Virus record (IMG/VR): IMGVR_UViG_3300009132_000002 | Strand: one strand, 5' to 3' | Length of the DNA stretch: 64,000 nucleotides | From: a virus | Taxonomy: Duplodnaviria > Heunggongvirae > Uroviricota > Caudoviricetes | Shown here: positions 3,249 through 44,659 of the stretch, one piece after another | Layout: every line of letters starts with the position of its first letter | How positions within the stretch are numbered: position 1 is the stretch's first letter | Program-made: the position numbers and the translations under genes | Notes under the pieces: model-generated | What the model was told of the DNA's origin: nothing | Databases searched by the model: none | Seen by the model: only the letters and a program-made list of their open reading frames with translations

Positions 3249-3629
3249 TTAGGGTTTTCTACCACCCTTACTTAACTTTTTGCTGATAAATGTGAGTTGA
3301 TCTTTAGATAGTAATGGCAATACTTGAAATGCCTTTTCTTTAGAATATCCATAATATTCTTTTATCAGATCAATATCTGAATTTTTATCTTCCTTTGCCC
3401 ACTTTGAAAATCTTTTACGTTTTCTAATTAAGGTTCTAAGAAAATCATATTGTAACTTAGAATCTATATGGGCATATCTATTCATCTCATTTGCATATAT
3501 AACAGTATCATTAAAATAAGATAAACCACGATTAACCATAAAAGAATTATATGCTTTCTCATCAAGATTGTCGTGCATAATATTTTCTTTAGAATAGTTA
3601 ATACTATTTAAATAGTCAAAATGGTTCAT
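3249..3629 (-). CDS. clamp-loader small subunit gp62-like
   Basis: Segment RKRKRFSKWAKEDKNSDIDLIKEYYGYSKEKA resembles T4 gp62 [31 protein letters not shown]; located in the 45-44-62-regA block. Shorter than T4 gp62. Confidence 0.5.
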   Translation of the reverse strand: MNHFDYLNSINYSKENIMHDNLDEKAYNSFMVNRGLSYFNDTVIYANEMNRYAHIDSKLQYDFLRTLIRKRKRFSKWAKEDKNSDIDLIKEYYGYSKEKAFQVLPLLSKDQLTFISKKLSKGGRKP

Positions 3630-4231
3630 GATATAGCCCTTACTAATGTTTGCATTCTCATAACATCTACTGCAATATCGTGAACCGGATCGTGATGAAT
3701 AAAGTTATCACAGCCTTCGGGCATAAAACTATTTTTTAATCCGCTACCCCAAGACAGACCTTCTATTATTGATCTAGTATCTCTTAGTTGCCAAAAAGAA
3801 TATGGGTGAGGTTTACAAAGCTGATCCATAATATTTTCAAATATAATAGGATCAAAATTATTACCTCTAGTGTATACTTTACTTCTGAAGGTCATATCAC
3901 CAATTGTAGAAACAAAGAAATCATAAAGTTCTGTAATAGGCCTATCTTGATCCGAGGGAATTAACTGTTTTTTTGCTTCGGGACCCTGCTCGTTCCACCA
4001 TTTTAATGTTTTCTTATCAATAACACGATTATGATTTTTTACTTGATCTTGAACATCAAACTTAATAAGCTTTGCAGATTCTACTAATTCGTTAAATGAA
4101 TATCCATTTTCAGTAGTAAAATTATCTTCTGAAAACTTAAGAGCCGCCAATGAAACCACAACACAATTATATCTATCTGTAGATAATGTTTCAAAGTCAA
4201 AGATAATTGAATTAGACATCTTTAGCCTCAT
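3626..4231 (-). CDS. dexA: DEDDh 3'-5' exonuclease, DexA-like
   Basis: Exo motifs IIFDFETLS, YTRGNNFDPIIF, HHDPVHDIAVD. Collinear similarity to T4 DexA (IKFD..WW.EQ.PEAKK.LIPSDQD). Confidence 0.75.
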   Translation of the reverse strand: MRLKMSNSIIFDFETLSTDRYNCVVVSLAALKFSEDNFTTENGYSFNELVESAKLIKFDVQDQVKNHNRVIDKKTLKWWNEQGPEAKKQLIPSDQDRPITELYDFFVSTIGDMTFRSKVYTRGNNFDPIIFENIMDQLCKPHPYSFWQLRDTRSIIEGLSWGSGLKNSFMPEGCDNFIHHDPVHDIAVDVMRMQTLVRAIS

Positions 4232-5486: not shown

Positions 5487-6161
5487 TTATTCTCCGTATG
5501 TTGATGTCTTTTCAAGAGCAATCCAATACATAAGATCACTCGCTGAGTTGGTAAATTTTGAAATTAATTTTGAAGAAATTTCTACTTCATAATCTCCTTG
5601 GTCAATCTTTAAATTAGAAATATTAAAGACAAAGTTGTATTTATCACTGGATGAACTACCTTCCACATCAATAGAAAAACTATTTGCTGTAGAATTTTCA
5701 GACGATGTAACAGTCAAACTTACTGCAGATCCACTAGGGGAAACATGAAGTTCACTATGCCCAAGTGCTGAAGCTGCTCGTTTAACTTTACCAAGAGTGT
5801 CTCCATCAAGAGTAAATCTTACATCAGTCTCTGGCATCTTTACTTCTTTAGATGGTGATGTGAGCATTTCTGTATCTGAGTAAAAATACTTCACTTTTGA
5901 TCTACCAGTAGAATCACCAATAATAACATAATTTTCTTCAAAGTTAAGTCGTGGTGAGTCAACTAATCCTAAAACACCTAAAAATTCATTTAGATCATAA
6001 ACTCCAAATGTTTTTGGAAAGCTTTCCTTAATCTCTGCTTTTGAAAGAATATTCTTTGCTTCAGAGATAGTTTGAAGTGTACTACCCTCATTAATAACTA
6101 GGTTAGAATTTACAGAAGCATAATTCTTTAAGATTGAAAGTGTAGAGTCACTGAGTTCCAT
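5487..6161 (-). CDS. sliding clamp gp45
   Basis: N-terminus MELSDSTLSILKNYASVNSNLVINEG and VYDLNEFLGVLGLVDS match T4 gp45 (MKLSKDTTALLKNFATINSGIMLKSG / IYDLNGFLGILSLVND); 224 aa. Confidence 0.9.
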   Translation of the reverse strand: MELSDSTLSILKNYASVNSNLVINEGSTLQTISEAKNILSKAEIKESFPKTFGVYDLNEFLGVLGLVDSPRLNFEENYVIIGDSTGRSKVKYFYSDTEMLTSPSKEVKMPETDVRFTLDGDTLGKVKRAASALGHSELHVSPSGSAVSLTVTSSENSTANSFSIDVEGSSSSDKYNFVFNISNLKIDQGDYEVEISSKLISKFTNSASDLMYWIALEKTSTYGE

Positions 6162-6233
6162 TATATCTATTTCTCCGTTTCATAAAATATATAGTTAATT
6201 ATATCACATATTGTCACTATTGTAAATAGCTTT

Positions 6234-7439
6234 TTAATTTTTTTTAGAAATTAATTTCTCTAATATTGCTAAATTATTAGTTCCTAGGTTATAAAGCAAT
6301 TGTGGATGATTAATAGAACATTTAACAGAATTTCTAGTAAAGTCTAAATCAAAACGAGCACCGGCTGAATCCATACCAGTATTTACAAGAAATACATTAC
6401 AATTATTAGCATGTATCTTTTGCATCAATAAATCACTATATTCGGTTACAGGTCTAGGCATGAACGGTGATCCATAGCATGGGCTAAATATCTTTTTAAT
6501 TTCGTTATTTCCAGCCTCGGTACCGGGCATTTGGCTCGTATATCCTGTTTCAAAGAAACGCCGAACTGTATCACCTTTTATCATACTTATAGGAGGAAAT
6601 GATCCAGTCACATCCATAGTTAAAAAGAATATATTATCTGGATGACTAAAATCTTTATTACTATGATAGGCATTTTCAACTGAGGTAATTGGATAACTTA
6701 ATCTAGCATTTGGCACACCTGGATTTTCTACCACTAAACAGTCTTTATTTCTAGCATCTTCTACGGCATTGAAAATAGTTGGATGGGTTTCTAGGCTAAG
6801 ACCTTCACTTTTAGCATAGCATCCAGTCTCAATCATTCTAATTCCATCTTGATTCCAGTAAACTTCATCATCACTGATTAGCTTATAATCTGGATCACTA
6901 CTTAATGTTGTTTTACCTGTTCCACTTAATCCAAACATAAGATTGGTTGTATCTTTATAAGTAAAGGCACTACAGTGCATTGGTAGCACACCACTTTCTG
7001 GTAGCTCAAAGCTAACGATACCAAAAACACCTTTCTTAATTTCACCTAAAAATGTGGTGCCAGCAATAAGCATCCTGCACTCATTTAGGTGAACATAGAT
7101 TTTGGGTTCTTCGACTTTAAATCCAGTATGATGATATATCGTCCAATCTGCAGTGTATTGTAAAGGATTATCTACTACTGGAAACATATTGCGAACAAAT
7201 TGAGCATGTCTATCGTCATTAGTTTCTACTCTAAAGCAATAACCACAACTATAAAAAACCAAATTATGATTATATTCTAATTCGTACATATCGTTATGTA
7301 ATTTCCAAAAATCTTTTTCATCGCCAATTTTATTATAATCTGGACGATCATGATCAAGATATTTTGTTTTTGAACCAAAGAAATATTTGTTTTTTGGGCT
7401 TCTACCTGTAGGATATGTTTCTATTTCAATATTAGGCAT
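6234..7439 (-). CDS. pckA: phosphoenolpyruvate carboxykinase (ATP), PckA homolog
   Basis: Full catalytic core collinear with E. coli PckA: YPTGRSPKNKYF, HAQFVRNMF, kinase-1a P-loop MFGLSGTGKTTLSSDP, ISDDE..W...G..E.GCYAK, SYPI, FFLT.D..G..PP. 401 aa. Confidence 0.8.
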   Translation of the reverse strand: MPNIEIETYPTGRSPKNKYFFGSKTKYLDHDRPDYNKIGDEKDFWKLHNDMYELEYNHNLVFYSCGYCFRVETNDDRHAQFVRNMFPVVDNPLQYTADWTIYHHTGFKVEEPKIYVHLNECRMLIAGTTFLGEIKKGVFGIVSFELPESGVLPMHCSAFTYKDTTNLMFGLSGTGKTTLSSDPDYKLISDDEVYWNQDGIRMIETGCYAKSEGLSLETHPTIFNAVEDARNKDCLVVENPGVPNARLSYPITSVENAYHSNKDFSHPDNIFFLTMDVTGSFPPISMIKGDTVRRFFETGYTSQMPGTEAGNNEIKKIFSPCYGSPFMPRPVTEYSDLLMQKIHANNCNVFLVNTGMDSAGARFDLDFTRNSVKCSINHPQLLYNLGTNNLAILEKLISKKN

Positions 7440-9157
7440 TATGCCACCATTTTACTAAAGTTCTTTTCTTTTTTGAACTCCAGCTTTTCTTCAAATTTTC
7501 CATCAAGTATTTCTCCTTTATGAGAGATTACAAATACGTTTGTGTCATCATCTAGTGTATGTAAAATTTTCATTAGATTATCAACACCATCATGATCCAA
7601 AGATGAATCAAATGTTTCATCTAATATAAGCAAATTGGTAGCTACAGAGTTTTTCATCTTAGCAATCATTCGCCAAGTAAATAGCAAAGCAAGATCAATT
7701 CTTTGCTTCTCGCCTTCTGAGAAAGAATCATACGAGAATGCATCTCTATGACGTGATCTAATAGTTTCTTGAAAGCTTTCATCTAAATTAAAATGTACAA
7801 AGAAATCCAGAACTTGAAGATATTGATTTACTAATTTATTGATTACAGGAATATATTGTTTAATAACCTTAGTTTTAATGCCCGTATCTTTTAACATCTC
7901 AGCCATAACACTATTATACGAATATTCTTCATTAAGAGTTAATTTATATTCCATTAACTCGTTTCTTTCTTCATTCATATCATGAAGTTCTTGATTAGCC
8001 TCACCAATATCGCCTTCTCTTGAACTAAGTCTTTGTATATCGAGATTAAAACCATCTATTTGTTTTTGATAGGATGATATAAGTTTATTATTGGTATTAA
8101 TTAAATTATTATTATCTTTAACTTCTTCAGCTTTATTATTCCATTCGTCTATTAAAGCTGCTACATCATTAGCTTCCGATTGTATTCTTTCAAGGGTTTC
8201 TTTAGTTTGTAATGCTTTTTGCTTACATTCGTGTATTTTCCTCTTTTTAAAATCTGGTTCGATTTCCTGTGAACAGGTCGGACAGGTGTCATTCTGTTCA
8301 TAAAATTTAGAATCGCCAACGATTGTTTTAATTTCTGATGTGGCACTGGCCTTATCTTGTAAAATGATTTGTTTTTTATTATTTGCTTCTTTAAGTTGCT
8401 TTGATACCTCTTCGGCATTTGCTTCATTAAAAGCACTAGACGCGGCATTACTATTATGTAATTGCTTAATTTCACTTTCGACCTCTGAGATTTTTTTCTT
8501 TTTATCATTAATCTCATCCTCATTAATTTGTGTAATATCTCTAATATATTTTCTTTGAGAATCTAGTTTATTTTTTAGAATATCCAGTTGATAAGAATTT
8601 TCTTTTAGTTTTTCTTTTAGTACACTATTCTTTTCTTTTATAAGAATATTCATTTTTGAAAATACATTGATATCCAGAAGATCCTCAATAACATCTCTTC
8701 TATGCTGTGCAGGTAGTTGCATAAAAGGAATAAAAGATGAAGAACCTAGCACAACAATCTGGTGAAAACTTTTATGATTAAGCTTAATAATGTTTTGTTC
8801 AAGGACCTTCTGGTACTCTTTAGCGTGAGAAGATTGGTTAATCATCACGCCATTTTTCCATATTTCAAATATTTGTGGTTTTATACCACGAACAACCTTA
8901 AAGAGTGCTTTACCTATAATAAATTCAACCTCTACAACACTATCTTTATTATTGATAGTATTAACTAACTGAGGTTTATTAATATTACGATGCGGCTTAC
9001 CAAATAGTGCAAAGGAAAGAGCATCAAGAATAGTTGACTTTCCTGCACCGTTTTGACCTACTATAAGAGTTGATTTTGTTTTATTAAGACTAATAGTTGT
9101 CCAATTATTACCAGTCGATAAAAAGTTTTTATATCGAATAGATTTAAAAGTAATCAT
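7439..9157 (-). CDS. recombination endonuclease subunit gp46 (Rad50/SbcC-like)
   Basis: N-terminal Walker A GQNGAGKSTILDALSFALFGK, long coiled-coil middle, C-terminal signature/Walker B LLILDETFDSSLD. Confidence 0.85.
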   Translation of the reverse strand: MITFKSIRYKNFLSTGNNWTTISLNKTKSTLIVGQNGAGKSTILDALSFALFGKPHRNINKPQLVNTINNKDSVVEVEFIIGKALFKVVRGIKPQIFEIWKNGVMINQSSHAKEYQKVLEQNIIKLNHKSFHQIVVLGSSSFIPFMQLPAQHRRDVIEDLLDINVFSKMNILIKEKNSVLKEKLKENSYQLDILKNKLDSQRKYIRDITQINEDEINDKKKKISEVESEIKQLHNSNAASSAFNEANAEEVSKQLKEANNKKQIILQDKASATSEIKTIVGDSKFYEQNDTCPTCSQEIEPDFKKRKIHECKQKALQTKETLERIQSEANDVAALIDEWNNKAEEVKDNNNLINTNNKLISSYQKQIDGFNLDIQRLSSREGDIGEANQELHDMNEERNELMEYKLTLNEEYSYNSVMAEMLKDTGIKTKVIKQYIPVINKLVNQYLQVLDFFVHFNLDESFQETIRSRHRDAFSYDSFSEGEKQRIDLALLFTWRMIAKMKNSVATNLLILDETFDSSLDHDGVDNLMKILHTLDDDTNVFVISHKGEILDGKFEEKLEFKKEKNFSKMVA

Positions 9158-11096: not shown

Positions 11097-11501
11097 CTAG
11101 TGAAGCTTAGACTTATCTATAAAATTAAATTTTAATACGTTATCATTCTCTGGATCCGTTGTAATATTTAATTCTTCTTCTTTTTGATTTTCAGTTGTAA
11201 TAAGTTCTATTTCTTCTTTTATTTTTTCTATAGCATTTGTGTATTGATCTAAAATTTCTTTAGATGGTACCGAAGCCGCTATCATATGATATAAATTAAT
11301 AGTTATAAAATGATCTGGTCTTTCAACATAGGTCATCCAAGGCTTGAACATATAATAGCTTCTTTCATTATCTAAATCTACTCTAGCTATTCTGAAAGCC
11401 CCTCTGACAACAATATCTTCTTCAAGTTCTTCCATTATTTCACAAATAATTTCCGAGCCATCTGCTATTTTTAATTGTTTAATATTGTTTGTGTTTATCA
11501 T
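11097..11501 (-). CDS. hypothetical acidic protein (134 aa), translationally coupled to uvsW
   Basis: ORF track; ATGA overlap with uvsW stop. Confidence 0.45.
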   Translation of the reverse strand: MINTNNIKQLKIADGSEIICEIMEELEEDIVVRGAFRIARVDLDNERSYYMFKPWMTYVERPDHFITINLYHMIAASVPSKEILDQYTNAIEKIKEEIELITTENQKEEELNITTDPENDNVLKFNFIDKSKLH

Positions 11502-13006
11502 ATTGAAACCTTATAGAATTTAAATTTAAATCTCTCTTTTTTATATATTTTTAATCTTTCTTCGCTGTGGAGTAGGGCATAGTTTTTTCTTGACTTGTGT
11601 TGGAAGTCATCTGATATATCATAGAGTTTAGTAGTCGTTCCATCCTCTGACTTCCGTAATCCCCTCCCAATAGATTGAAGAACCTTAATTTGGGATTTCG
11701 AAGGTGAAGCAAAAATAATATTATGCAAGTTCCGTATATTAATGCCAGTACTAAAAGTACCCAGACTAGCAACGATAATAGCATCTTTTTGTCCCTCTGT
11801 TATTTTTCTAATAGCTTCCCTATCAGAAGTTTCTGTAGCACCACTTACAAAGAATACTTTTCTACCTTCTTTAGCTTTAGTATTTATCAACTCAAAAAGA
11901 GGTTTTCCATGCTTCTCAACGAACTGAAATAAAACCAAAGTATTACCTTTTTGATCCAACGCAAGATTTCTTATAAATTTATTTCTCTGTTCATACTTTA
12001 CAATATAATCTATTTCATCTTGGTATTGTAAACCAACCATCTGTTTTTTAATTTCTTCACTGTATTGTAGCTGAATCATAAGAATTTCTAAATCCGCAAG
12101 AGTTTGATTATCCTGTAAAGTTCTGGTTGTTGTGACTTTCATTACCTTACCAAATAAACCTTCAAGAACTAACTGGTGGGTCTGTGTTCCATCAAGTGTA
12201 CCAGTAGTACCATAGCGATATTCTGCTAGTTTACATTTATTCATAATATTAGTAAGCGATTTAGATTTAAAACCGTGACACTCATCTCCTAAGATCATAC
12301 CAAACTGATCGAACCAAGCGGGTGGCATTTTATAAATGGATTGCCATGTGCTTATACAGATAGCACTTTCAAACTCTTTATCTTTACCTGAATAGATTTT
12401 ATGCATACCAGTAGGATTTTGTCCATAATCCGCAAAGTCTCCATACATTTGTTCGACCAAAGATGTTGTAGGAACGATAATTAAAACCTTTCCTGCTCTT
12501 GGATAATTAAATCCATCTGTAAGCATCTGAAGCCAATACTTAGCTAAACAGTATAGAATTAAAGATTTGCCTGAACCTGTTGGAGATAAAAGAATTGATC
12601 TTTTTCTTTTTAATCCTTCACATATAGCATTAAACTGATAATCTCTTATGGATATAGGTTCTCCTTTACTTTTTAGTTCAAGAGACTTTATAAAATCCAT
12701 AATTTTATTAGGATTTATTTCATTATATGATTCAGGTAAACCATATTTGCTTTCTTCATATTCTAGTGTATAGTTTCTTTTTTCACAGAAATCTTTTACA
12801 TAAGATATGAGACCACAAGATAATTCGCAGTTATTTACGTTAAATAATCTTATTTTTCCATCCCACACTTTATTTCTATAAAGCGGCATAAATTTATAAC
12901 CAGGCACAAAGAAAGAAAAATAGTCGGATAATTCTTGAGCAATACCCCAATCACAACCGATGATCATATTAGCATGATCTTTTTTCTGTATTTTAACTAT
13001 ATCCAC
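11498..13006 (-). CDS. uvsW: SF2 DNA helicase UvsW
   Basis: Helicase motif I LLSPTGSGKSL, motif II DECH, motif III TGT, motif VI QSIGRGLR; 502 aa. Confidence 0.8.
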   Translation of the reverse strand: MDIVKIQKKDHANMIIGCDWGIAQELSDYFSFFVPGYKFMPLYRNKVWDGKIRLFNVNNCELSCGLISYVKDFCEKRNYTLEYEESKYGLPESYNEINPNKIMDFIKSLELKSKGEPISIRDYQFNAICEGLKRKRSILLSPTGSGKSLILYCLAKYWLQMLTDGFNYPRAGKVLIIVPTTSLVEQMYGDFADYGQNPTGMHKIYSGKDKEFESAICISTWQSIYKMPPAWFDQFGMILGDECHGFKSKSLTNIMNKCKLAEYRYGTTGTLDGTQTHQLVLEGLFGKVMKVTTTRTLQDNQTLADLEILMIQLQYSEEIKKQMVGLQYQDEIDYIVKYEQRNKFIRNLALDQKGNTLVLFQFVEKHGKPLFELINTKAKEGRKVFFVSGATETSDREAIRKITEGQKDAIIVASLGTFSTGINIRNLHNIIFASPSKSQIKVLQSIGRGLRKSEDGTTTKLYDISDDFQHKSRKNYALLHSEERLKIYKKERFKFKFYKVSI

Positions 13007-18208: not shown

Positions 18209-19429
18209 TTAATCGCCAGATACTGCTGTATATGTTGGGTATCTTCTTATAGTTCCATCACCTTGAGTACCCCAAACAATTCTTACAGCTCCATCACCAC
18301 CTTTTTGTCCATGGCCAATAGTACTTTGAAGAATACCGGCACCACCACCGCCAGGTGAAGCAGCTTTACCACTAAAAAATGGGTGATTTGATGTACCAGA
18401 AGTTGGTGGAGTTATCGAACCTTCACCACTTGCTGGACCTAAGTTTACGTTACCAGATGAAGCGGTATTAGAACCATGAACGGAAGGATACTGATGTACA
18501 CCTGTATTTGAAGTACTTATGGGAGTTAAACCATTATCACCTTGACCATATATTCCGGTTGCACCACCCGCTTGTCTTAAATTTGGAAAAGTCCAACCAG
18601 AACCGGTTTGGGTGCGTAAACCACCGGCACCACCACCAGCACCACCACTACCAGCAGTAGGTGATCCATCTGCATCTTGTCCTCGTCCACCACCAGAACC
18701 ATAACCAGCTGCACCACCCCCACCTGGAGACCTATGTGGAGTAGAAGTTGAACTAGAACCACCACGACCACCAGTTCCTCCAGCAATTTTTGCAGCGCCG
18801 CCACTCATACCACCGGCACCACCTGCAGTGTTATTTGCTGTATCAGTCGACCCGCCTTCGCCACCATATGCAATTAATCTGTCGGTACCACCATAAGAAA
18901 TAATAGTATCCCCACCGTCAGATCCATCTGCCCCAGAGCTTGTTCCACCAGCGCCACCACTACCAACAGTAATTGTTACAGTATTTCCAGCAGTAACTGC
19001 CCAATGACCATAAACCGCACCGCCTCCGCCGCCAGCAGATGCCGCAGTGGCTGAAGTAGATGAATTACCTCCACCGCCGCCTCCGCCGCCTATACAAACA
19101 GCTGAAATTTCTGTAACTCCACTTGGTACTGTCCATGAAAAGGATGTATCAAAAGTAAGACCAGAAGTGTTTCTATCAAATATAGCAGACATTGCTATAG
19201 TATCAAATCCTTGATTTCGGAAATCACTAAAACTAATTTGACCACTTGTAGGAATTCCAGATGTAACCACAGAACTAGTTACAACATTAGTTGCTGTTAC
19301 AGCTGTTTGAACATTAGTCCCATTTCTATAATATTCTGATAAACTCATTGCGGGAGGTGATTGATCTTCAAACATTTCCTCTATATCGTTATCAAATGAT
19401 ATGGCTCCGGTGTTTGGTATAAATGGCAT
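18209..19429 (-). CDS. glycine-rich repeat protein (406 aa), probable fibre/structural protein
   Basis: Long GGxGG/GSGG tracts; start overlaps the stop of the giant fibre gene (ATGCC at 19429). Confidence 0.6.
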   Translation of the reverse strand: MPFIPNTGAISFDNDIEEMFEDQSPPAMSLSEYYRNGTNVQTAVTATNVVTSSVVTSGIPTSGQISFSDFRNQGFDTIAMSAIFDRNTSGLTFDTSFSWTVPSGVTEISAVCIGGGGGGGGNSSTSATAASAGGGGGAVYGHWAVTAGNTVTITVGSGGAGGTSSGADGSDGGDTIISYGGTDRLIAYGGEGGSTDTANNTAGGAGGMSGGAAKIAGGTGGRGGSSSTSTPHRSPGGGGAAGYGSGGGRGQDADGSPTAGSGGAGGGAGGLRTQTGSGWTFPNLRQAGGATGIYGQGDNGLTPISTSNTGVHQYPSVHGSNTASSGNVNLGPASGEGSITPPTSGTSNHPFFSGKAASPGGGGAGILQSTIGHGQKGGDGAVRIVWGTQGDGTIRRYPTYTAVSGD

Positions 19430-22400
19430 TATTTTTCCTTCTCAAGTCTTTCAACTTTTTCGGAAAGTTCTTTAATTGCTTCAATTAACAAAGGAACCAA
19501 CTTTTCATATCTAACAGCTTTATATCCATCTTCTCGTGTTGTTGTAACTTCTGGTAACACTTCTTCAACTTCTTGAGCTAAGACTCCAGCCTCTCTGAGA
19601 GTTTGATCTTTATCTTCAGCTAATTCATTCCAGTTAAATGTATATCCAGAAATTTTATTTATCTTATCTAAAGCATTATCAATTACAGAAACATTAGTCT
19701 TTAATCTTTCATCTGATGTTCCAAATGCAGTAATATCTCCTGTCGCAGTAAAGGCACCAGTAAGTGTAAAGTTACCAGTGTAAGCCCCGGACATTGCTAA
19801 ACCACTAGTTTGTTGTGTTAAACCACTACCAGCAGCAACACTAAATGTAGTACCACTTAAACCAATGCCACTACCCGCTGAATATGTAGTATTATTATCT
19901 GTGCTACTTATAGTAAAACTAGGATAAGTTCCACTAATACTTGTTGCGCCACTACCTGTTAAAACTACGGTTTGATCAGGGGCTGTATTAGTAAATTCAT
20001 TACTTGAATCAAGAGAAAGCCCAGTTCCTGCAGTATATACTTCACCAGCAGTCCCGGGCTCGAAGCTTGATGTAGTACTATTATAAACAATCGTTTCACC
20101 ATTAGCAATACCTGACGTTGACACGTCGGTTAAATCGTTAATAACCGAAGGTATAGTACCTAAAGCAGCAGTAGAAAGAGATTGTACATGGCCCCATTCA
20201 TCGTAGTTTACATTTTGTATTACAGTAGTGCCGGAATTACTACCAGTATGCGATGAACCAGAACCAGTGGCACCATGTGAAATTGTAACTGTTTCAGATG
20301 TTGAGCTGTTTGTTGTAAACGCTCCACTATTAGTTCCCGGCTGACCACCTCCACTAATAGCAATACCATTTACGCCGCCTGTGCCAGCTTGTCCTTGTAT
20401 TGTTATAGTTTCATTATTTATTTGTTCAATCTGAACAACTGAACCAATAACCATATCACCATTATTATCTACTTCAATTTCAATACCATCTGTTGACTTG
20501 ATAGTAAGTGTAGTATCTTCTCCACTGTCTGGACCTTGATGAAGTAATTTGAAATCAACCTCATTTGAATCACCACCAGCAACAAAATCTGAAATATATG
20601 TAGTATTAGGTAAGTGCATACTATCAGCACTAATTTCTATTCTTCCATCATGTGTTCCAGCTGGAGCGATAGATGAAACTGTTATTCCACCAGAACCGAA
20701 CACTTCAATATATTGAGAAGAAGTATTTGCATCTGCATCAGTCTCAGTAAATGTAATTCTTGGTAAAGTGCCAGGAGATGAAGCATTTGCTTGTAATGTT
20801 GAAGTAATTTGAAGTGGTGCTGCACTAAAATTAAGTGAAGCATTAGAAGCGCCAGGATTTGTAACACTTACGCTAAGCCCATTTGAAGCAGTAACTGCAA
20901 GATTAGTTGTAGTAGTAATACCAGTTGCAGGGCTTGAATCATTAAGAGTTATGAAATTAGAATTACCTACAGATGTTCCGGTAATTGTGCTTACAGCCTG
21001 AAGATCAACGCCCGATATTGTTATTTCATCAGAGGCTTGAGATACTGAAATGCCATTAGTTCCTAAAAAGCTTACTTGGTCATCAACCGTGGCACTATTA
21101 ATTGTTTCAGTAAGAACTAGCTTTGCGCCACCTGATACATCAGCAGATGATACAGCATATCTTGCGAGTAAAGGATTAGCGTCTATAACAATAGAGTTTG
21201 TGCCTGAACCATCTACGTTAATTCCATTAGTACCTGAAATACTAATTGTTTCTACTCTCTGTTGACCATCAGAATCAACAGTTAAATTTATTGTACCACT
21301 ATTTGATGCAGATCCACCGCCTGATAAAGCATAGCTAGATTGTAAACCAAATACAGTTTCTTGTGTAAGAGTTGAAGTAATTTCTATGGCATTATTACCA
21401 TCATCATAATTAACTGATATATTATCATCACCAGACATAATATTACCAACAGCATCTTGTGCACGCTCATTAGTAAAATATAAATTAGTAGTTCCTTCTG
21501 GTAATCCATCAGTATTAGTAATACCTTCAAAATCAATAGTTTTAGCTGACTGATCTACAGTAATTTTACCTATACCACCGCCCGATGCATCATAAACATT
21601 ATTATTATTAGTATTATCAGAAGTTAATGCTAAAAACACTCTAGCAGAATCAAAATATAAATTTAATCCTGACGGTCCTTCTGGAATATCATCCGTTGTT
21701 AAACCATTTTGTCGACCAGTTGCATCTCCAACTGTAGTTGGAGTGGTTCCACCAGGGTTAGTGAAATTGAATGAACCTCCATTTTCTATATTCATATTTA
21801 CAGTACCATCTTCTTCAACAGAAAATACTGCATCACCTTTTGCTGTAGCATCAACTAAAGGATTTTTATTTGAAAATATACCAAAGAAGTTATCAGTTTC
21901 ATTATCATTTCTATCTAAGAAATTAAATATACTCTGACGGGAAGCAGTTGCTATACTATTAGTACCTTTACCAAGATTATAACCAAGATCAATTATTTCA
22001 TGATCTAGGGAATCCGCAAAAAATCTATATGATTGAACATCAAGATCACCACCCAATTGAGGCGTTTGATCATATACAATATGAAGATTACCTCTATGGA
22101 AGTTTATAAATCCATTTTGTAATACACCATCTATATTTGGAGTTTCAAATGCTATTTTATCATTAAGATTATCACCAACTCTAATAATTAATGATCTTTG
22201 AGAATCTTCTTCAGACGCAAGATAAATTCTAGCACTATCTTCATTAATACCACTTGCTGTAAAAGAAGTTCCTTCAAAGGCTAATCCTTTATACCTACCT
22301 TCGGTGAGCATAAGAGTTTGATTAATTTTTGTATTATGATTTTCATCTATCCATGCTTCTCTCTGACCATTCCATGCAGATAAAGAGTTTGGCTGTTCAG

Positions 22401-25221
22401 GACCATATGTATGAAATGTTCCTTTTGTGATACTAAAGTTTAAATCTGCATATGGAGAACTTGAAGAATCATCGCTACTTATTTCATGAGCTTTAGCTGT
22501 TCCACCGGTACCGGTTTTTTGAAATACTGCTGCGTAAGGATTTCTAATAGGAGTTGTTGGCGCATTATAGAGTTTCATCAATCCCTGATCAAACGCCGTT
22601 GTTCTTAAATTATTATTTACGTTTGCTATCCAAGCATCAGCCGATGTTATTGCACCAATATGACCATTAGACATACTATTAATAGCATTAGATAATAATG
22701 TAGAATTGGCTGAATCACTATGTGTATCAAATGTAGTTGAAGAAAGCTTGGTTCCACTAGAATTAAATGTGGTAAGATTTAATCCTCTACCGTGTCCATG
22801 ATAACCCTTTAATAAAATTGGATTTTCATCAAACTCAAAATATTCTGTTTCATTATCAATATACAAATATGCTGGAGAATTATTATTTAATCCTGTTCCT
22901 CTCATTTCTATATATGCAGAACTTTGAGGTAAGCCACTTAAATCAACTTCTTTTATGAGCTGATATGAATTATCTGGATCTTTCCAATATAGAGTTTTTG
23001 ATCTATCATTGTAAAAAAATCTACCAGTTTTCATTACCTCGTCAACGCCAACACTACTATCTAAAATATAGTATCCAGCGCTATCTACTGCTATAGGAAC
23101 TTCACCATCTCTAATATCTCTATCTGAAATAAAAGTATAAATTAAATCATTTTTAAGATCAAATATATTTTTATCATTATCATCAGTAGTAAATACGATA
23201 TCACTTATGATAACACCAGCTTGACCCTGTGTTCCAAATCCATATGCAGTTTCCGCATTTAAAAATGGTTGTAAAAATGTTTTTCCACTAAGTATGGCTT
23301 CTTCAATATCTAATTCAATACCAGTTTTAAATTCTGAATTTTCTATATCAGTATCACCAAATTGGTTTGTAAGAACTCTTATTATATTCCCTTGTTTTTC
23401 AGCAAAAACAGTTGTCTGGCCAGATGAAACCCAATCACTAGTTGATTGACCATCATATGTTGGTGTTATCGGCGCAGGTGCAGCACCTTTTGAAACATAA
23501 TCAAAATCAAAATAGAATTCGTCTGATTGACCAAAATTATAGACTAAACCCCAAGAAGGCGGATCTACTATTATTGTACCATTTTCAAGATAATCACTAT
23601 AATCTTGAAGAGTGCCTTTTGGTCTTCTAAAAGCACTAATAGTGTATTCTTTACCGCGTATTCTTAACTGAGCTACAACTAAGAATATTGGAAAATCTGT
23701 TGCTGCTGTGGAATTAAACGTTGCATTAACATTATAATTTTCATATTTTTTAGGTGATATGATACCTGCAAATGTTCTCGGGGCAAAATCACTATATATG
23801 CTATTAGTAGTTTCATCATATCTTAATGCTTGTGTGTCTGAATCATTAAATGGAAAGGTAAAATCTTCTTCTGGATCAGTATCTAATTCTCTTTGATCGT
23901 AATGAGAAAATCTACTAAACTGATCATAGTATTTGTATTTACCTTGAGAATCCATAGACTCAAGTTGAGTATCAGGGATATAATCTTTTTCAACATTTAA
24001 CTGATCACCGTTAAATACGAATCTTCCTCTTTTAAGAGCATAATCTAAATAGTATGATTGTGCAGATTCTTCATATGATAAAAACTGCCCATCTCTTCCA
24101 GATAAATTAAGAAGAATATTGTTAGATGATGTGTTACCTGTAGTATCATCGGAAGCAATAGAATCAGCATATCCAAATAAATCTGGTTCTATTCTCCAAG
24201 CTTGTGCTGCACTATCATAGTATATTTTTACATTGCTATCAGCAGCCCATTTTATTCCATCACTGTCTAAAACGTATTGATTTACATGAATAGATTTTGC
24301 TACAACCACACCGGTTTCATCAATACTAAAAATCGCATTATTTTTATCAATTGAATCAGTATATGCGTTTAAATCGTTATATAGTGCCCAATAATTTCCG
24401 GTTTCAGTATTATTGACATCTAAGAAATTATGTATAGATTGTAGTGAAGTTAATCCTACATTATTATTTCTATCTACTGGTTCATCATAATCTAAATCTA
24501 ATGTATTACCACTATCTGCTGATCCAGCACCATATATTCTCTGACCATTTATTTCTAAGTCAGTGACAAGTGTATTAGCAGCTAATTGATTAGTTTGTAA
24601 ATAGTCAACATATTTTAGATTTGTAATATGAGCCGAATCAACTCTCATACCAGAAATATAAGCTGAATCTGCAGTAAGCTTTCCTATTACAGCTGAATCT
24701 ATATTAAAACTATTTACTGGTACACCAAAATCTGATTCAAACTCATCTACTGGTAAATCTGTTAAAAACACATCAGGCGGATTACCATTTGCAAATATTG
24801 TGAAATTTAAATCTGAAAAAGTGCTTTCTATCCATTGACCATTTTTTAAATTTCGTTCAGATTCTGCTACTGCAGTACCTATTATAAAATCTAATGATCT
24901 ATTTCCTTGTGGATCAAGAATAGTATTTTCATCAAGATATAATCTAACTGGGATATTAGATGTATACAGTTTTTTATCTGGTGGATTTAATCCTGTTTCT
25001 ATAGCTGATGAATTTGGAAAAAAACTATAACCGGGTAAAGTTTCCTGAGAAAAGAACCAACCACGAATATAATCTGGATTAGGTGCGGTTTCTAAATCTA
25101 CAGAAAACTCAACCCAAACTGTATCACGGTCAATTGTTCTAGTAATTGTGCCAGACGAACTGGAAGGATCTATTGTCCCGCTTTGCCCCTTGTCTGTGAT
25201 ATAGGAAACTAAATCATACAT
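19429..25221 (-). CDS. giant fibre protein (1930 aa) with C-terminal intramolecular chaperone (peptidase S74-type) domain
   Basis: C-terminus ...FGTSDERLKTNVSVIDNALDKINKISGYTFNWNE...GVLAQEVEEVLPEV...YEKLVPLLIEAIKEL matches the auto-cleaving chaperone of endosialidase / T5 L-shaped tail fibres. Ser/Thr/Gly/Asn-rich beta-rich body. Confidence 0.7.
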   Translation of the reverse strand: MYDLVSYITDKGQSGTIDPSSSSGTITRTIDRDTVWVEFSVDLETAPNPDYIRGWFFSQETLPGYSFFPNSSAIETGLNPPDKKLYTSNIPVRLYLDENTILDPQGNRSLDFIIGTAVAESERNLKNGQWIESTFSDLNFTIFANGNPPDVFLTDLPVDEFESDFGVPVNSFNIDSAVIGKLTADSAYISGMRVDSAHITNLKYVDYLQTNQLAANTLVTDLEINGQRIYGAGSADSGNTLDLDYDEPVDRNNNVGLTSLQSIHNFLDVNNTETGNYWALYNDLNAYTDSIDKNNAIFSIDETGVVVAKSIHVNQYVLDSDGIKWAADSNVKIYYDSAAQAWRIEPDLFGYADSIASDDTTGNTSSNNILLNLSGRDGQFLSYEESAQSYYLDYALKRGRFVFNGDQLNVEKDYIPDTQLESMDSQGKYKYYDQFSRFSHYDQRELDTDPEEDFTFPFNDSDTQALRYDETTNSIYSDFAPRTFAGIISPKKYENYNVNATFNSTAATDFPIFLVVAQLRIRGKEYTISAFRRPKGTLQDYSDYLENGTIIVDPPSWGLVYNFGQSDEFYFDFDYVSKGAAPAPITPTYDGQSTSDWVSSGQTTVFAEKQGNIIRVLTNQFGDTDIENSEFKTGIELDIEEAILSGKTFLQPFLNAETAYGFGTQGQAGVIISDIVFTTDDNDKNIFDLKNDLIYTFISDRDIRDGEVPIAVDSAGYYILDSSVGVDEVMKTGRFFYNDRSKTLYWKDPDNSYQLIKEVDLSGLPQSSAYIEMRGTGLNNNSPAYLYIDNETEYFEFDENPILLKGYHGHGRGLNLTTFNSSGTKLSSTTFDTHSDSANSTLLSNAINSMSNGHIGAITSADAWIANVNNNLRTTAFDQGLMKLYNAPTTPIRNPYAAVFQKTGTGGTAKAHEISSDDSSSSPYADLNFSITKGTFHTYGPEQPNSLSAWNGQREAWIDENHNTKINQTLMLTEGRYKGLAFEGTSFTASGINEDSARIYLASEEDSQRSLIIRVGDNLNDKIAFETPNIDGVLQNGFINFHRGNLHIVYDQTPQLGGDLDVQSYRFFADSLDHEIIDLGYNLGKGTNSIATASRQSIFNFLDRNDNETDNFFGIFSNKNPLVDATAKGDAVFSVEEDGTVNMNIENGGSFNFTNPGGTTPTTVGDATGRQNGLTTDDIPEGPSGLNLYFDSARVFLALTSDNTNNNNVYDASGGGIGKITVDQSAKTIDFEGITNTDGLPEGTTNLYFTNERAQDAVGNIMSGDDNISVNYDDGNNAIEITSTLTQETVFGLQSSYALSGGGSASNSGTINLTVDSDGQQRVETISISGTNGINVDGSGTNSIVIDANPLLARYAVSSADVSGGAKLVLTETINSATVDDQVSFLGTNGISVSQASDEITISGVDLQAVSTITGTSVGNSNFITLNDSSPATGITTTTNLAVTASNGLSVSVTNPGASNASLNFSAAPLQITSTLQANASSPGTLPRITFTETDADANTSSQYIEVFGSGGITVSSIAPAGTHDGRIEISADSMHLPNTTYISDFVAGGDSNEVDFKLLHQGPDSGEDTTLTIKSTDGIEIEVDNNGDMVIGSVVQIEQINNETITIQGQAGTGGVNGIAISGGGQPGTNSGAFTTNSSTSETVTISHGATGSGSSHTGSNSGTTVIQNVNYDEWGHVQSLSTAALGTIPSVINDLTDVSTSGIANGETIVYNSTTSSFEPGTAGEVYTAGTGLSLDSSNEFTNTAPDQTVVLTGSGATSISGTYPSFTISSTDNNTTYSAGSGIGLSGTTFSVAAGSGLTQQTSGLAMSGAYTGNFTLTGAFTATGDITAFGTSDERLKTNVSVIDNALDKINKISGYTFNWNELAEDKDQTLREAGVLAQEVEEVLPEVTTTREDGYKAVRYEKLVPLLIEAIKELSEKVERLEKEK

Positions 25222-39609: not shown

Positions 39610-40104
39610 CTAATTTACACTTTTTCTTCTAATTGCTATTGCCTTTTTAGGATCAAATTTAGCATAGCTTACAGTATTGTCTTGATTTCCACCCAAGATT
39701 ATCCATCTTGTTTTATTTTCATATTGAACTTCTTCTATAAAGAAACCTACATGTCCTTGCCATATTTTATCTCCTCTTGGAAATACTACTATGTCACCTT
39801 TTCTAGGTTTATCTAATACTTCTTCACCCCAAGTTAGAAATGATCTAGCCAAAAGTGGATAATCACTTGTAACTTCAGATCCGGATATTCCTTGCATATC
39901 AAGAACAAAATTAACAAATGCTGCACACCATTGAGTATATACTGGGTCAACACCGACTAATTTTTTTATTTGATTTCTGTCTTTATTTTCATCTAAGCCA
40001 ATATATTGTTCTGCTGGTTTAGATAAATCTTGAAATTCCTCTATAGGTTGACACGCTATAAGAAAACTTAAACAGAAAATTCCTACTGCATTTTTTCTAA
40101 ACAT
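39610..40104 (-). CDS. NlpC/P60 (CHAP-like) peptidoglycan hydrolase lipoprotein
   Basis: Lipobox FLIAC; catalytic Cys in QWCAAFVNFV and His in QGHVGFF. Confidence 0.6.
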   Translation of the reverse strand: MFRKNAVGIFCLSFLIACQPIEEFQDLSKPAEQYIGLDENKDRNQIKKLVGVDPVYTQWCAAFVNFVLDMQGISGSEVTSDYPLLARSFLTWGEEVLDKPRKGDIVVFPRGDKIWQGHVGFFIEEVQYENKTRWIILGGNQDNTVSYAKFDPKKAIAIRRKSVN

Positions 40105-40838
40105 GGCAGATATGCACCCATTGGATGATCACCAATGTTGTCTATTTTGCCTTTCTTTAAGCCCATCCACATGCCCATCAGTCTATCTTTCACTCTTCTC
40201 CAGCCTGTGGCTTTACTATAATCGCCGTGTCTATTAAAATAGTGCATAGTACCATGATGTCTATAACCCATAATCCAAAGAGGAACACGAGTAACTACAT
40301 CATTATTATTTACAAATCTGTGGTGAATCATTCCTAGACTCTTAACATATTTTTTCCAGCCAACTCTTGGCGAACCATATGTGTAAACTTCTACAGGATC
40401 TGCAAGCTTTTCATCGTGAAATGCTCTACTAGCCATAATAGTTGTCATTGCAGCACCTAAACTGTGTCCACAAAACCATAGCTTTTTTCTTACGTTTGTT
40501 TTAACTTCAAGATGTGGTTTTATCATTGGCCATAAATCATCAACTTCGGCTTTAAATCCTTGATGTACTCTGCTTATAGTTTCTGCCATGACAGGTACTG
40601 CTTTTAAATCAGCTTTAACATCATTCCATTGAGTTGGTTCTGTGCCTCTACAAGCAATAACAATGTCATATTTATTCATAAATCTATATGCTTGGGCGCC
40701 ATCTCTATCATAAAATGTTGTTTGATTAAATCCTAAACGTCTTGCAGCTTTCTTCGCTTCTTCAAAAGGTAAATACGATATAGCTGCTAATTTACCAAAT
40801 AATAAACTTCTTTCTTCAAATGATAATCTGGATAGCAT
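40083..40838 (-). CDS. class 3 lipase / alpha-beta hydrolase
   Basis: Nucleophile elbow FCGHSLGAAMTT; late promoter TATAAATA at 40866-40873, 28 nt upstream. Confidence 0.65.
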   Translation of the reverse strand: MLSRLSFEERSLLFGKLAAISYLPFEEAKKAARRLGFNQTTFYDRDGAQAYRFMNKYDIVIACRGTEPTQWNDVKADLKAVPVMAETISRVHQGFKAEVDDLWPMIKPHLEVKTNVRKKLWFCGHSLGAAMTTIMASRAFHDEKLADPVEVYTYGSPRVGWKKYVKSLGMIHHRFVNNNDVVTRVPLWIMGYRHHGTMHYFNRHGDYSKATGWRRVKDRLMGMWMGLKKGKIDNIGDHPMGAYLPCLEKMQ

Positions 40839-41664: not shown

Positions 41665-41749
41665 TGGTACGCCTGGAGGGCTTCGAACCCCCACTCCTTA
41701 CGGAACTAGATCCTAAATCTAGCGTGTCTGCCTATTCCACCACAGGCGC
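41665..41749 (-). tRNA. tRNA-Leu (anticodon TAG), type II
   Basis: Acceptor GCGCCTG/CAGGCGT, anticodon arm CTAGA-TTTAGGA-TCTAG, T-loop GGTTCGAAG, encoded CCA, long variable arm. Confidence 0.7.
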
Positions 41750-41754
41750 ATATT

Positions 41755-41827
41755 TGGTAGTGTTGGATAGAATCGAACTATCTCTTCAGGCTTATGAGAC
41801 CCGAGTCGGCACCTAACCGCAACACTA
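41755..41827 (-). tRNA. tRNA-Met/Ile2 (anticodon CAT)
   Basis: Acceptor AGTGTTG/CAACACT, T arm GATAG-TTCGATT-CTATC, loop CTCATAA, CCA encoded. Confidence 0.6.
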
Positions 41828-42364
41828 TTTTACTATAAGCTCATCAATATGAACGGGCTTATAATCAGTTTGTTCAACACATACACATTTGTATGGTCCA
41901 TTTGGGCTTGCATTTTGGTGAATATGACCATGAACATTAATTAGGTTATTTTCACCAAATCTATCTTTTTCTCCTAAAGTAGTTGGATGTGCTGGAGTAT
42001 GTGTAAACAATAATCCATGCGGCATATTTTCTAAAAGAAGATGTCTCCATAACGTTACCTTTTTAAAAAAAGGAGCTAACATTTTTATGTTATCGTGGTT
42101 ACCAACAACCAATCTTTTTCGTCCGGGCAACTTTACAAAATTTTCTTCTAGCCACTCTACCTTGTTTAAACCGAAAAGAACATCACCCAAATGATAGATA
42201 ATATCACCGGGTTTGACAGTGTCATTCCAATTGTCTAACATACACTCATTCATTTCATTAACATTAGAAAAATTACGTGTTGGTTTACCAACAGAATCTT
42301 TAAAGGTTAATATGTTTGAATGATTAAAGTGTGTATCACTAATAACCCATATATCTCTATTCAT
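41825..42364 (-). CDS. calcineurin-like metallophosphoesterase
   Basis: ISDTHFNH, LGDVLF, GNHDN, HGHIH motifs. Confidence 0.65.
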   Translation of the reverse strand: MNRDIWVISDTHFNHSNILTFKDSVGKPTRNFSNVNEMNECMLDNWNDTVKPGDIIYHLGDVLFGLNKVEWLEENFVKLPGRKRLVVGNHDNIKMLAPFFKKVTLWRHLLLENMPHGLLFTHTPAHPTTLGEKDRFGENNLINVHGHIHQNASPNGPYKCVCVEQTDYKPVHIDELIVK

Positions 42365-42554
42365 AGTACATTCCTTTATGAATTGGCAACTGAGGCTCTG
42401 TTATTACCTTCTCTGAGAGGGCCAGTCATTTCGCTCTTTACGTCCTTAGAATCGCAGCAAGGACTTCCAACTTATGAAACTAATATACTATAGTTCTTAT
42501 GATAAGTAAATAGATAAAATATGTTTTTACCTTTCTGTGACAAATATGTTACAG

Positions 42555-42989
42555 TCAATGATGATAAGAATTTTTGACTTCAACAAATGCACCATCTTCA
42601 ACTTTAAAGAAATTTGTTGGATGTTTATTAATGTCTCCCGTACAGCGAAAATATGCTCTACCACCATCTAAGGCTATAGTACCAACAGCATGGAAATCGT
42701 GTCTATGTTGACTATAATGCCAACAATCACCCACCTCTTTCATTCCAAACTCAACCTTTTCAATTCTATCAGCATTTGTAATCACCATATCATCATGGTA
42801 CCAATATAAACCAAAATATTTATTTCCAAATTCTGGATGAGGTGTCTCTCTATAAAAAATATCCATCGCTTTGGATTCATAACCGAGAGCGCTTGTACAG
42901 ATATACTTTATTTCAACACCATCTTTTTTAGAATAGTGATCCACAATAGTTGCGGTATTAAAGATAGGTCTATGACAAATATTAAACAT
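42555..42989 (-). CDS. hypothetical His-rich protein, possibly cupin-like
   Basis: Start moved to Met54 (MFNICHRP, RBS AAGGGA) because an early promoter (-35 at about 43044-50) lies inside the longer ORF-track version. Confidence 0.4.
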   Translation of the reverse strand: MFNICHRPIFNTATIVDHYSKKDGVEIKYICTSALGYESKAMDIFYRETPHPEFGNKYFGLYWYHDDMVITNADRIEKVEFGMKEVGDCWHYSQHRHDFHAVGTIALDGGRAYFRCTGDINKHPTNFFKVEDGAFVEVKNSYHH

Positions 42990-43009
42990 GATATTTCCCT
43001 TATTAATCC

Positions 43010-43052
43010 TTTCACTACTAGTATAACATATTTTTTCTAATTTGTAAACCAT
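43010..43052 (-). promoter_or_regulatory. early promoter (GTTTACA-N17-TATACT)
   Basis: Minus strand GGTTTACAAATTAGAAAAAATATGTTATAC. Confidence 0.45.
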
Positions 43053-43070
43053 TTTATGCATTATATTATT

Positions 43071-43146
43071 TGGAGTACGTGACTGGATTCGAACCAGCAT
43101 GATCCGGGGTTGCAATCCGGCGCCTAACCATTCAGTCCACACGCAC
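43071..43146 (-). tRNA. tRNA-Cys (anticodon GCA), tentative
   Basis: Acceptor GTGCGTG/CACGTAC, anticodon loop TTGCAAC, T arm GCTGG-TTCGAAT-CCAGT, CCA encoded; D arm irregular. Confidence 0.45.
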
Positions 43147-43153
43147 ATATTTT

Positions 43154-43230: not shown

Positions 43231-43237
43231 AATAAAA

Positions 43238-43313: not shown

Positions 43314-43314
43314 A

Positions 43315-43689: not shown

Positions 43690-43696
43690 TTTTCAC

Positions 43697-44611: not shown

Positions 44612-44659
44612 TCGAACACAATCATCCTTTTATTGTTTAAAATTTATAATAACTATACA

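Follow-up and report, generated by a model that had tools for sequence, protein, structure and literature searches.

The window analysed here is a 64,000-nucleotide stretch of DNA from a tailed phage (IMG/VR record IMGVR_UViG_3300009132_000002), and its minus strand carries an ATG-initiated open reading frame (ORF) of 401 amino acids (aa) at 6234..7439 (hereafter pck), whose product is recognisable by sequence as a homolog of ATP-type phosphoenolpyruvate (PEP) carboxykinase (PckA), yet not as a standard PckA. The reading that we consider probable is that pck specifies an active, compact PckA of host type, and that it serves as an auxiliary metabolic gene (AMG) whose product would form PEP from oxaloacetate in the early or middle phase of infection. 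In this reading, the activity of the enzyme, the direction of its reaction, the time of its expression and the identity of the host are inferred from the evidence below.

Identity, fold and active site of the compact PckA

Among Pfam families, the window protein matched PEPCK_ATP (PF01293; E=1.8e-86, 291.2 bits against a gathering cut-off of 26.5) over aa 10–374 and profile positions 37–434 of 465, the sole other match being AAA_33 at E=0.17. Solved ATP-PEPCK structures in the PDB were also matched by sequence, with E-values down to 7.9e-57 and with Actinobacillus succinogenes PckA as the best match, and a PHROGs search with the same protein returned no match. The translation contains the motifs YPTGRSPKNKYF (aa 9–20), HAQFVRNMF (aa 78–86), GLSGTGKTTLS (aa 170–180), ISDDE (aa 188–192) and GCYAK (aa 206–210), and all five stand in the same order as in Escherichia coli PckA when the proteins are aligned. 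The first-pass annotation of this stretch had proposed an ATP-dependent PckA homolog at this position with motifs collinear to those of E. coli PckA, and both proposals are upheld.

HPr kinase shares its P-loop domain fold with the C-terminal domain of PEPCK, which lends some support to the alternative that pck encodes an HPr kinase/phosphorylase or another P-loop kinase instead of a PEPCK. This alternative is nevertheless refuted and carries next to no probability, as the window protein has an N-terminal PEPCK domain with its TGRSPK motif and matched neither the Hpr_kinase_C nor the Hpr_kinase_N profile of Pfam at E-values up to 1. Moreover, the same search did detect a genuine HprK C-terminal domain protein in one of the compared loci (L089). 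The profile check thus leaves PEPCK_ATP as the best family, with no HPr kinase or other P-loop family preferred over it.

An AlphaFold2 (AF2) model of the window protein, built on 37 family members, reached a predicted local distance difference test score (pLDDT) of 88.1 and a predicted template-modelling score (pTM) of 0.89. The top 35 Foldseek matches of this model in the PDB were all ATP-PEPCKs (E about 1e-36, root-mean-square deviation about 3 Å). Their TM-scores were 0.80–0.84 when normalised to the query and only 0.62–0.66 when normalised to the target, a combination of high and low values that points to a modelled fold that is trimmed yet complete. The lid segment is retained in the alignment and forms the sole long low-pLDDT stretch of the model, as expected because the lid is a mobile loop. 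Compared with PckA as represented by the E. coli and Thermus thermophilus enzymes (EC 4.1.1.49; PDB 1aq2/2pxz and 1xkv, respectively), the two-domain fold is alike, and TGRSPK with Arg65, GE(I/M)KKG with Lys212/213, His232, the P-loop GLSGTGKTT, Asp268/269, Lys288, Arg333, Arg449, Thr455 and the lid loop are all kept (E. coli numbering). The compact protein differs from these enzymes in its length (401 vs. about 530–540 aa), in the fixed changes Tyr207Phe, Glu297His and His271Val, and in its identity of at most about 41% to the nearest full-length PckAs.

Residue conservation was scored in 121 compact-family members (ORFs of 394–404 aa) and compared with 126 diverse full-length PckAs. The equivalents of E. 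coli R65, K212, K213, H232, G248–T256, D268, D269, K288, R333, R449 and T455, a set through which E. coli PckA contacts substrate, metal, phosphate and adenine, were invariant or nearly so in the compact family. The P-loop GLSGTGKTT (aa 170–178) and the kinase-2 residues D190/D191 were found in all 121 members. Invariance likewise held for K136, H155 and D191, which correspond to the Mn2+ ligands K213, H232 and D269 of E. coli PckA, and for T177, which corresponds to the Mg2+ ligand T255, while R13, K135, K176, K210 and R246 (E. coli R65, K212, K254, K288 and R333) were kept in 119–121 of the 121. Loss of the catalytic Lys, His or Asp residues would have spoken against a PEPCK, and the equivalents of Lys212/213/254/288, His232 and Asp268/269 are all retained across the family. 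The claim of a complete catalytic core made in the first-pass annotation therefore stands for the Lys, His, Asp, Arg and P-loop residues, and has to be given up for the protein as a whole, since about 135 residues are gone and Tyr207 is replaced by Phe.

Several properties of the protein count against an active PckA working in the PEP-forming direction. With 401 aa vs. 540 aa in E. coli PckA, it is about 135 residues shorter, lacking in the alignment about 52 N-terminal and about 50 C-terminal residues as well as internal segments of 4, 9, 9 and 9 residues, so that the standard two-domain length of PckA (about 510–540 aa) is not reached; the low target-normalised TM-scores belong on the same side. 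All six NCBIfam pckA models scored the window protein under their curated cut-offs (e.g., 246 vs. 590 bits for TIGR00224 and 283 vs. 636 bits for NF006820), which we attribute to its shorter length and its divergence. The position of E. coli Tyr207 is occupied by Phe130 in the window and by Phe in 121 of 121 compact members, compared with Tyr in 122 of the 126 full-length PckAs. Glu297 (Glu in 121/126) is replaced by a His that is fixed in the compact family, and His271 (His in 113/126) by Val or Ile. Finally, activity of the compact family is a prediction from residues and fold, and the PEPCK reaction is reversible, its direction here being read only from neighbouring genes.

In E. coli PckA, CO2 is held by Tyr207 and Arg65. 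Beside Tyr207Phe, the CO2 pocket of the compact family also carries Gly208Leu and Trp206Thr, and without the hydroxyl of Tyr207 the enzyme may be less inclined to carboxylate. The aromatic ring at position 207 is kept, and a cellular homolog (see below) carries the same Phe. Titles of PDB entries list E. coli PckA mutants R65Q, Y207F, G209S/N, K212 variants, K213S, S250A, K254S and D269N, so that many of the residues kept in the compact family have been targets of mutation in deposited structures, and according to the title of entry 6at3 the Y207F mutant was crystallised with oxaloacetate bound. A literature search on Tyr207 or Y207F kinetics, and on pckA in Pelagibacter, returned nothing usable.

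These changes open the alternative of a shifted chemistry, i.e., that the compact enzyme acts mainly as an oxaloacetate decarboxylase or in a pyruvate-kinase-like manner, or phosphorylates another 2-oxo or hydroxy acid, or uses another nucleotide. Tyr207Phe and Glu297His are fixed in 121/121 members at positions where diverse PckAs are nearly uniform (Tyr in 122 and Glu in 121 of 126), and the scores under the NCBIfam equivalog cut-offs point the same way. In addition, E. coli CO2-pocket mutants in the PDB (Y207F, G209S/N and K212 variants) bind thiosulfate and methanesulfonate, and such non-native ligands indicate that the ligand preference of this pocket can be changed. Nevertheless, we regard a shifted chemistry as unlikely, given that the phosphoryl-transfer, metal and oxaloacetate-binding residues are all kept, that E. 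coli Y207F was crystallised with oxaloacetate, and that the neighbouring genes described below fit PEP formation. Furthermore, the cellular homolog lies beside hprK, a classical alphaproteobacterial site for pckA, which suggests that it is the cell's own PckA.

Insertion site, transcription and allele history

The first-pass annotation had placed pck between the T4-type genes gp45 and gp46, and the Pfam matches of the flanking genes confirm this (Table 1). The product of the upstream gene is 48–52% identical to gp46 of Phage C48C1 and of cyanomyophages, and the matching phages annotate its homologs as gp46/SbcC-like, while the C48C1 equivalent of the downstream gene is annotated as DNA polymerase processivity factor. 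The core genes around pck are gp47/gp46 on one side and gp45/gp44/gp62/regA on the other, and the window also holds gp23, portal, sheath and terminase genes.

Specifically, the gp46 stop codon TAA (7441–7439) overlaps the pck start codon ATG (7439–7437) as TAATG. From this junction, translational coupling of pck to gp46 had been claimed; the overlap is real and is retained in two of the closest relatives (L007 and L011), and coupling may follow from it. An apparent 60-nucleotide (nt) spacing between gp46 and pck in relatives, as read from tblastn coordinates, proved to be an artefact of alignment ends, since the DNA alignment gives TAATG.

The order gp47-gp46-pck-gp45-gp44 is common to the closest relatives of the window (L001–L015). 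In a more distant lineage (L032, L033, L042, L056, L067 and L076), gp45 directly follows gp46 and pck is found about 6.5–7 kb further on, and in Phage C48C1 gp46 adjoins gp45 without pck. The site between gp46 and gp45 is specific to the lineage of the window and not conserved among these phages. A promoter-like element that lies between pck and gp45 in the window (Table 1) directly follows the gp46 stop codon in L032, L056 and L076, which have no pck there, and at the same position in C48C1 stands a similar element, TTGACA-17 nt-TATAAT. This arrangement implies that the insertion of pck took place precisely where the end of gp46 had met the promoter-like element of gp45, and by its position it would have joined the gp46 transcription unit upon insertion. 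The first-pass annotation had called a central-carbon gene inside the replication block unexpected. The position is real, yet, being lineage-specific and of a kind common between T4 core genes, it is less surprising than was claimed; in T4 itself, genes 45 and 46 are separated by small non-essential genes, which makes this junction a known plastic spot instead of an inviolable block.

The promoter-like element 3′ of pck matches 11 of 12 consensus positions and is also kept in L007 and L011. Promoter-like sites in the region as a whole numbered 35 vs. 33 expected from shuffled sequence, and a promoter function of this element is suggestive only. The sequence scan revealed no strong promoter-like site immediately 5′ of pck, sigma-70-like sites being found upstream of gp55 and gp45, and the pck region was no richer in predicted terminators than shuffled sequence. 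The T4-late-type motif TATAAATA was absent within 5.2–11 kb of the window, which fits early or middle expression; elsewhere in the window TATAAATA motifs stand just 5′ of structural genes, with motif counts that are not above chance. Together with the gene order, these observations suggest that pck is probably co-transcribed with gp47 and gp46, early or middle in infection.

When compared with L007 and L011, the flanking genes are mostly 0.85–0.99 identical at the DNA level, while within pck identity falls to 0.50–0.87, the drop starting and ending at the gene boundaries. Correspondingly, the nonsynonymous (dN) and synonymous (dS) divergence of pck amounts to 0.14–0.16 and 1.2–1.4, respectively, vs. 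a dS of 0.2–0.6 for gp44 to gp47, i.e., pck has a dS 3–4 times that of its flanks. Relaxed selection can be ruled out as the cause of this divergence, as dS is raised along with dN, and the severalfold higher dS indicates that the pck allele of the window was replaced through recombination. Against L001–L015, the segment 6225..7420 has the outline of a recombination cassette with breakpoints at the pck edges. The dN/dS ratio of pck is about 0.12 (range 0.09–0.17 in seven comparisons), which shows purifying selection in these phages, and the GC content of pck equals that of its flanking genes (the window has about 31% GC).

Table 1. Position and basis of the features discussed (numbering of the whole window)
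Feature	Position	Strand	Basis
Compact ATP-type PckA-like gene (pck)	6234..7439	-	Pfam PF01293, PDB sequence matches, AF2/Foldseek, residue conservation, dN/dS
TAATG overlap of gp46 stop and pck start	7437..7441	-	Direct reading; kept in L007 and L011
gp46-like gene, SbcC/Rad50-type recombination nuclease subunit, upstream of pck	7439..9157	-	SMC_N, AAA_23
gp45-like sliding clamp gene, downstream of pck	5487..6161	-	Pfam gp45-slide_C
Promoter-like TTTACA-17 nt-TATAAT, TG-extended, between pck stop and gp45	6198..6226	-	11/12 consensus positions
Class-I fructose-bisphosphate aldolase-like gene, 265 aa	55231..56028	-	Pfam Glycolytic E=3.9e-7, above cut-off; PDB 2iqt E=6.8e-43
Small HAD-like gene, 112 aa, DIDGT motif	56043..56381	-	PDB 9iqw E=8.2e-10; also 1xpj

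Distribution among phages and marine Alphaproteobacteria

Many homologs of 394–404 aa and 67–95% identity, from marine metagenomes, were present in a large protein collection, and the IMG/VR search yielded 80 viral pck loci. Uncultured marine T4-like phages carry pck in at least 29 viral clusters at 90% identity. When 1.84 billion representatives at 50% identity were searched, the compact family formed essentially one cluster (556 bits), and only after a wide gap came full-length PckAs at 208 bits or less and 38–41% identity. The exact window PckA occurred on five metagenome contigs with identical neighbours. In the GenBank phage collection, a tblastn search found the compact gene in no cultured phage; its eight matches, all at 37% identity or less, were Staphylococcus, Salmonella and Escherichia records (two of them titled Salmonella enterica genomes), short unannotated fragments and a 636-kb uncultured-phage record, and were read as host DNA and not as phage genes. 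A megablast search with 8 kb around pck returned only a 266-bp match, to Phage C48C1, on which a literature search yielded nothing relevant. The major capsid protein of the window is nearest to those of Phage C48C1 (66%), Pelagibacter phage HTVC008M (61%) and Methylophilales phage Melnitz (61%), and these relatives, together with the GC content of about 31%, place the phage as a T4-like myophage of the group infecting streamlined marine heterotrophs.

The variable position of pck and its absence from the site in close relatives, as well as its absence from all cultured phages of the GenBank collection, could be taken to mean that pck is a mere passenger, i.e., a host gene picked up not long ago that is now degenerating or does nothing for the infection. 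This is strongly disfavoured and seems very improbable to us, as dN/dS stays at 0.09–0.17 over a dS above 1 and the catalytic residues are invariant. Moreover, intact ORFs of 394–404 aa occur in the at least 29 viral clusters, the GC content equals that of the flanks, and the start/stop overlap is conserved.

When one genome per bacterial species was scanned, a compact PckA of 397 aa was found in six marine alphaproteobacterial genomes of 28–30% GC, i.e., the single-cell genomes AG-414-O15, AG-911-F16, AG-910-B21, AG-404-G18 and AH-287-M23 and the metagenome-assembled genome (MAG) LRMED-261. This cellular protein is 64–65% identical to the window protein and shares its deletions as well as its Phe-containing TTFLGEIKKG motif. 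On one side, its gene is accompanied by genes for electron transfer flavoprotein (ETF) beta, ETF-alpha, hydroxyacyl-CoA dehydrogenase, rapZ and hprK, and on the other side by DUF429, acyl-CoA dehydrogenase and a GcvT-family protein. Members of the cellular cluster reside on contigs of up to 1.1 Mb, one exact sequence being present on 432 contigs, and this alphaproteobacterial synteny was found in none of the IMG/VR loci. The cellular compact PckA therefore shares its length class and deletions with the window protein and differs by its housekeeping synteny with hprK and rapZ. In the alphaproteobacterial loci L089–L093 and L095, compact pckA is divergently oriented from the adjoining short hprK and rapZ genes.

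From this synteny, the compact PckA is best understood as the resident chromosomal PckA of an abundant, AT-rich group of marine Alphaproteobacteria, which is probably SAR11-like and is the probable host group of the phage. In other Alphaproteobacteria, pckA also adjoins the hprK regulatory cluster, an argument for a gene inherited vertically in the cell and passed on to phages. In a neighbour-joining tree, however, viral sequences surround the cellular clade, so that transfer may also have run from virus to host. Two further MAG matches, L087 (Neomarinimicrobiota) and L088 (Flavobacteriales), were rejected as cellular hosts and considered viral or misbinned because of their synteny with the viral loci L020–L022 and L073 and their phage-type neighbours. 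L087 corresponds to the first 11.9 kb of the 335-kb contig PBPT01000016.1, where pck is accompanied by an HNH endonuclease and a class-II aminoacyl-tRNA synthetase-like gene; this contig may be chimeric or misbinned, or may stem from a very large phage.

Linked genes and the proposed role of pck

Viral pck loci were dereplicated at 90% identity into 29 clusters, and the neighbours of pck within 6 kb were listed for each. A class-I fructose-bisphosphate (FBP) aldolase, phosphomannomutase or small HAD gene was present in 20 of the 29 clusters (aldolase in 15, eukaryotic-type phosphomannomutase in 9 and a small HAD-like gene in 9), and in several phages the small HAD homologs lie 3–60 nt from pck. 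A recurrent order is aldolase, pck, phosphomannomutase and a cytidylyltransferase-like gene, with pck and the phosphomannomutase gene overlapping. In L027 and L037, the row consists of a fused nucleotidyltransferase/mannose-6-phosphate-isomerase gene, a HAD gene, pck, aldolase and a glycosyltransferase gene. Genes for UDP-sugar dehydrogenase, phosphoribosyl pyrophosphate (PRPP) synthetase, GAPDH and pck are contiguous in L018, L019 and L072 (L018 1214..5083), as are those for a KdsA-type DAHP_synth_1 protein, a KdsB-like cytidylyltransferase and pck in L043, L045 and L046 (L043 6535..9200). Members of the DAHP_synth_1 family catalyse the condensation of PEP and a sugar phosphate. Since these partners consume PEP or stand downstream in gluconeogenesis, they argue for the PEP-forming direction and for a supply of carbon to glycan and nucleotide precursors. 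The suggestion in the first-pass annotation that the phage redirects oxaloacetate/PEP flux towards nucleotide or sugar-nucleotide synthesis thereby gains independent support from the pck neighbourhoods of related phages.

The phage GAPDH and PRPP synthetase genes beside pck have the look of a gluconeogenesis-to-nucleotide cassette, and in the same three loci (L018, L019 and L072) a class-3 lipase homolog directly follows pck on the opposite strand. In L027 (4168..6647 and 11265..12925), genes for GTP cyclohydrolase I and a phosphoribosyltransferase flank pck (Pfam); two more ORFs, one QueD-like and a large one tgt/DpdA-like, were seen there by eye, with no supporting Pfam match, and these genes together suggest a 7-deazaguanine DNA-modification module.

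The window itself has homologs of the aldolase (PDB 2iqt being a class 1 FBP aldolase) and of the HAD-like protein, both embedded in a glycosyltransferase island at 53–64 kb (Table 1). The best listed PDB match of the 112-aa HAD-like protein, 9iqw, is titled 'capsule biosynthesis protein', and a Pfam search with this protein gave no match. To the counterarguments listed above should be added that pck of the window lies about 48 kb away from these sugar genes and not beside them, that linkage to such genes is absent in 9 of the 29 viral clusters, and that the assignment of the host group is indirect.

Under the favoured reading of an active, PEP-forming PckA, pck would be transcribed with gp47 and gp46, and its translation would begin at the ATG within the TAATG overlap. 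The compact PckA would then convert oxaloacetate and ATP into PEP, ADP and CO2, so that carbon of the citric acid cycle would be drawn into gluconeogenesis and PEP-consuming sugar synthesis. PEP and triose or hexose phosphates would yield nucleoside diphosphate sugars and keto-sugars for the glycosyltransferase island, and a second use of the PEP-derived carbon would be the formation of pentose phosphate and PRPP for nucleotides. As in an AMG, pck is situated between phage core genes, has a close homolog in a plausible (inferred) host group and bears the mark of purifying selection. In its host-like enzyme among core genes, its selection and its variable position, it resembles the central-carbon AMGs of other marine phages.

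The opposite direction has to be weighed as well, i.e., that the enzyme is mainly carboxylating and turns PEP, CO2 and ADP into oxaloacetate and ATP, thereby providing oxaloacetate and aspartate for pyrimidines and purines, as would fit a replication module. The reaction is reversible, and some bacterial PckAs carboxylate in vivo, that of A. succinogenes, the best PDB sequence match of the window protein, being an example. Likewise in favour of this direction are the probable co-transcription of pck with replication and recombination genes and the fact that some phages have genes for PRPP synthetase and phosphoribosyltransferase in the vicinity of pck. Nonetheless, the recurrent neighbours (KdsA-like synthase, GAPDH, aldolase and phosphomannomutase) consume PEP or act downstream of it, and the hydroxyl of Tyr207, a CO2 ligand, is gone in every member, from which weaker carboxylation is expected. 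A mainly carboxylating role is for these reasons judged improbable.

A bolder version of the PEP-forming reading, which we put forward as a speculation with a rather small chance of being right, is that the compact Phe-207 PckA is a distinct, 'CO2-blind' kinase that forms PEP in one direction only and is spread mainly by phages within modular gluconeogenic cassettes. The SAR11-like chromosomal copy would then have been acquired from or repeatedly exchanged with phages, because the cellular clade is nested in the viral diversity. If this is true, the cassettes that join PckA to aldolase, GAPDH, PRPP synthetase, KdsA and phosphomannomutase would play, in phages of streamlined heterotrophs, the part that genes for photosynthesis and the pentose-phosphate pathway play in cyanophages.

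Further features of the window were observed outside the pck region. The glycan island (53215..63943) contains many small glycosyltransferase- or methyltransferase-like ORFs, a GGxGTRL nucleotidyltransferase-like ORF (59983..60651, with no Pfam match) and a short-chain dehydrogenase/reductase-type epimerase/dehydratase gene (62022..63167; Pfam Epimerase E=2e-24) whose product has an N-terminus that by eye resembles UDP-sulfoquinovose synthase. A tRNA island on the minus strand (41665..51420) comprises 26 tRNA genes for nearly all amino acids with small ORFs between them, and includes an RNase H-like gene (46467..46958). Also on the minus strand, a 1930-aa tail-fibre-like ORF (19429..25221), with a C-terminus of intramolecular-chaperone/endosialidase type by eye, is followed by a 406-aa Gly/Ser-rich ORF (18209..19429) whose start overlaps its stop. 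An Rv2179c-like 3′-5′ exoribonuclease gene (3626..4231) lies between gp44 and gp62, and other accessory genes encode a class-3 lipase (40083..40838), an SPFH/Band-7 protein (43697..44611) and a metallophosphoesterase (41825..42364).

Marine virome surveys list pckA among putative viral AMGs (PMC12482060, PMC12448302), and a survey of pelagimyophage genomes makes no mention of carboxykinase, aldolase or gluconeogenesis (PMC7029224). A viral pckA as such is therefore not new. In the surveys found, the AMG catalogues only list the gene (as 'pckA' and 'ALDO' entries), and our literature search found no description of the compact Phe-207 variant, of its operon contexts or of its sharing between Alphaproteobacteria and pelagimyophage-like phages.

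The rewiring of carbon metabolism by phages has been worked out well in cyanophages and poorly in the phages of abundant heterotrophs of the ocean. Cyanophage talC, cp12, zwf and gnd redirect carbon to the pentose-phosphate pathway in a phototroph, whereas the compact pck points to gluconeogenesis in a heterotroph. Hosts that live on organic and amino acids have to make all their sugar and ribose through gluconeogenesis, of which PEP formation is the entry step, and the recurrent association of pck with PEP-consuming or downstream enzymes offers a testable model of how carbon would be supplied for phage glycans and nucleotides. The compact family may moreover offer a naturally minimal PEPCK (about 400 aa) that could help enzymologists to study how CO2 is recognised and what sets the direction of the reaction, and the enzyme shared between phage and cell may provide a clue for linking uncultured phages to their hosts.

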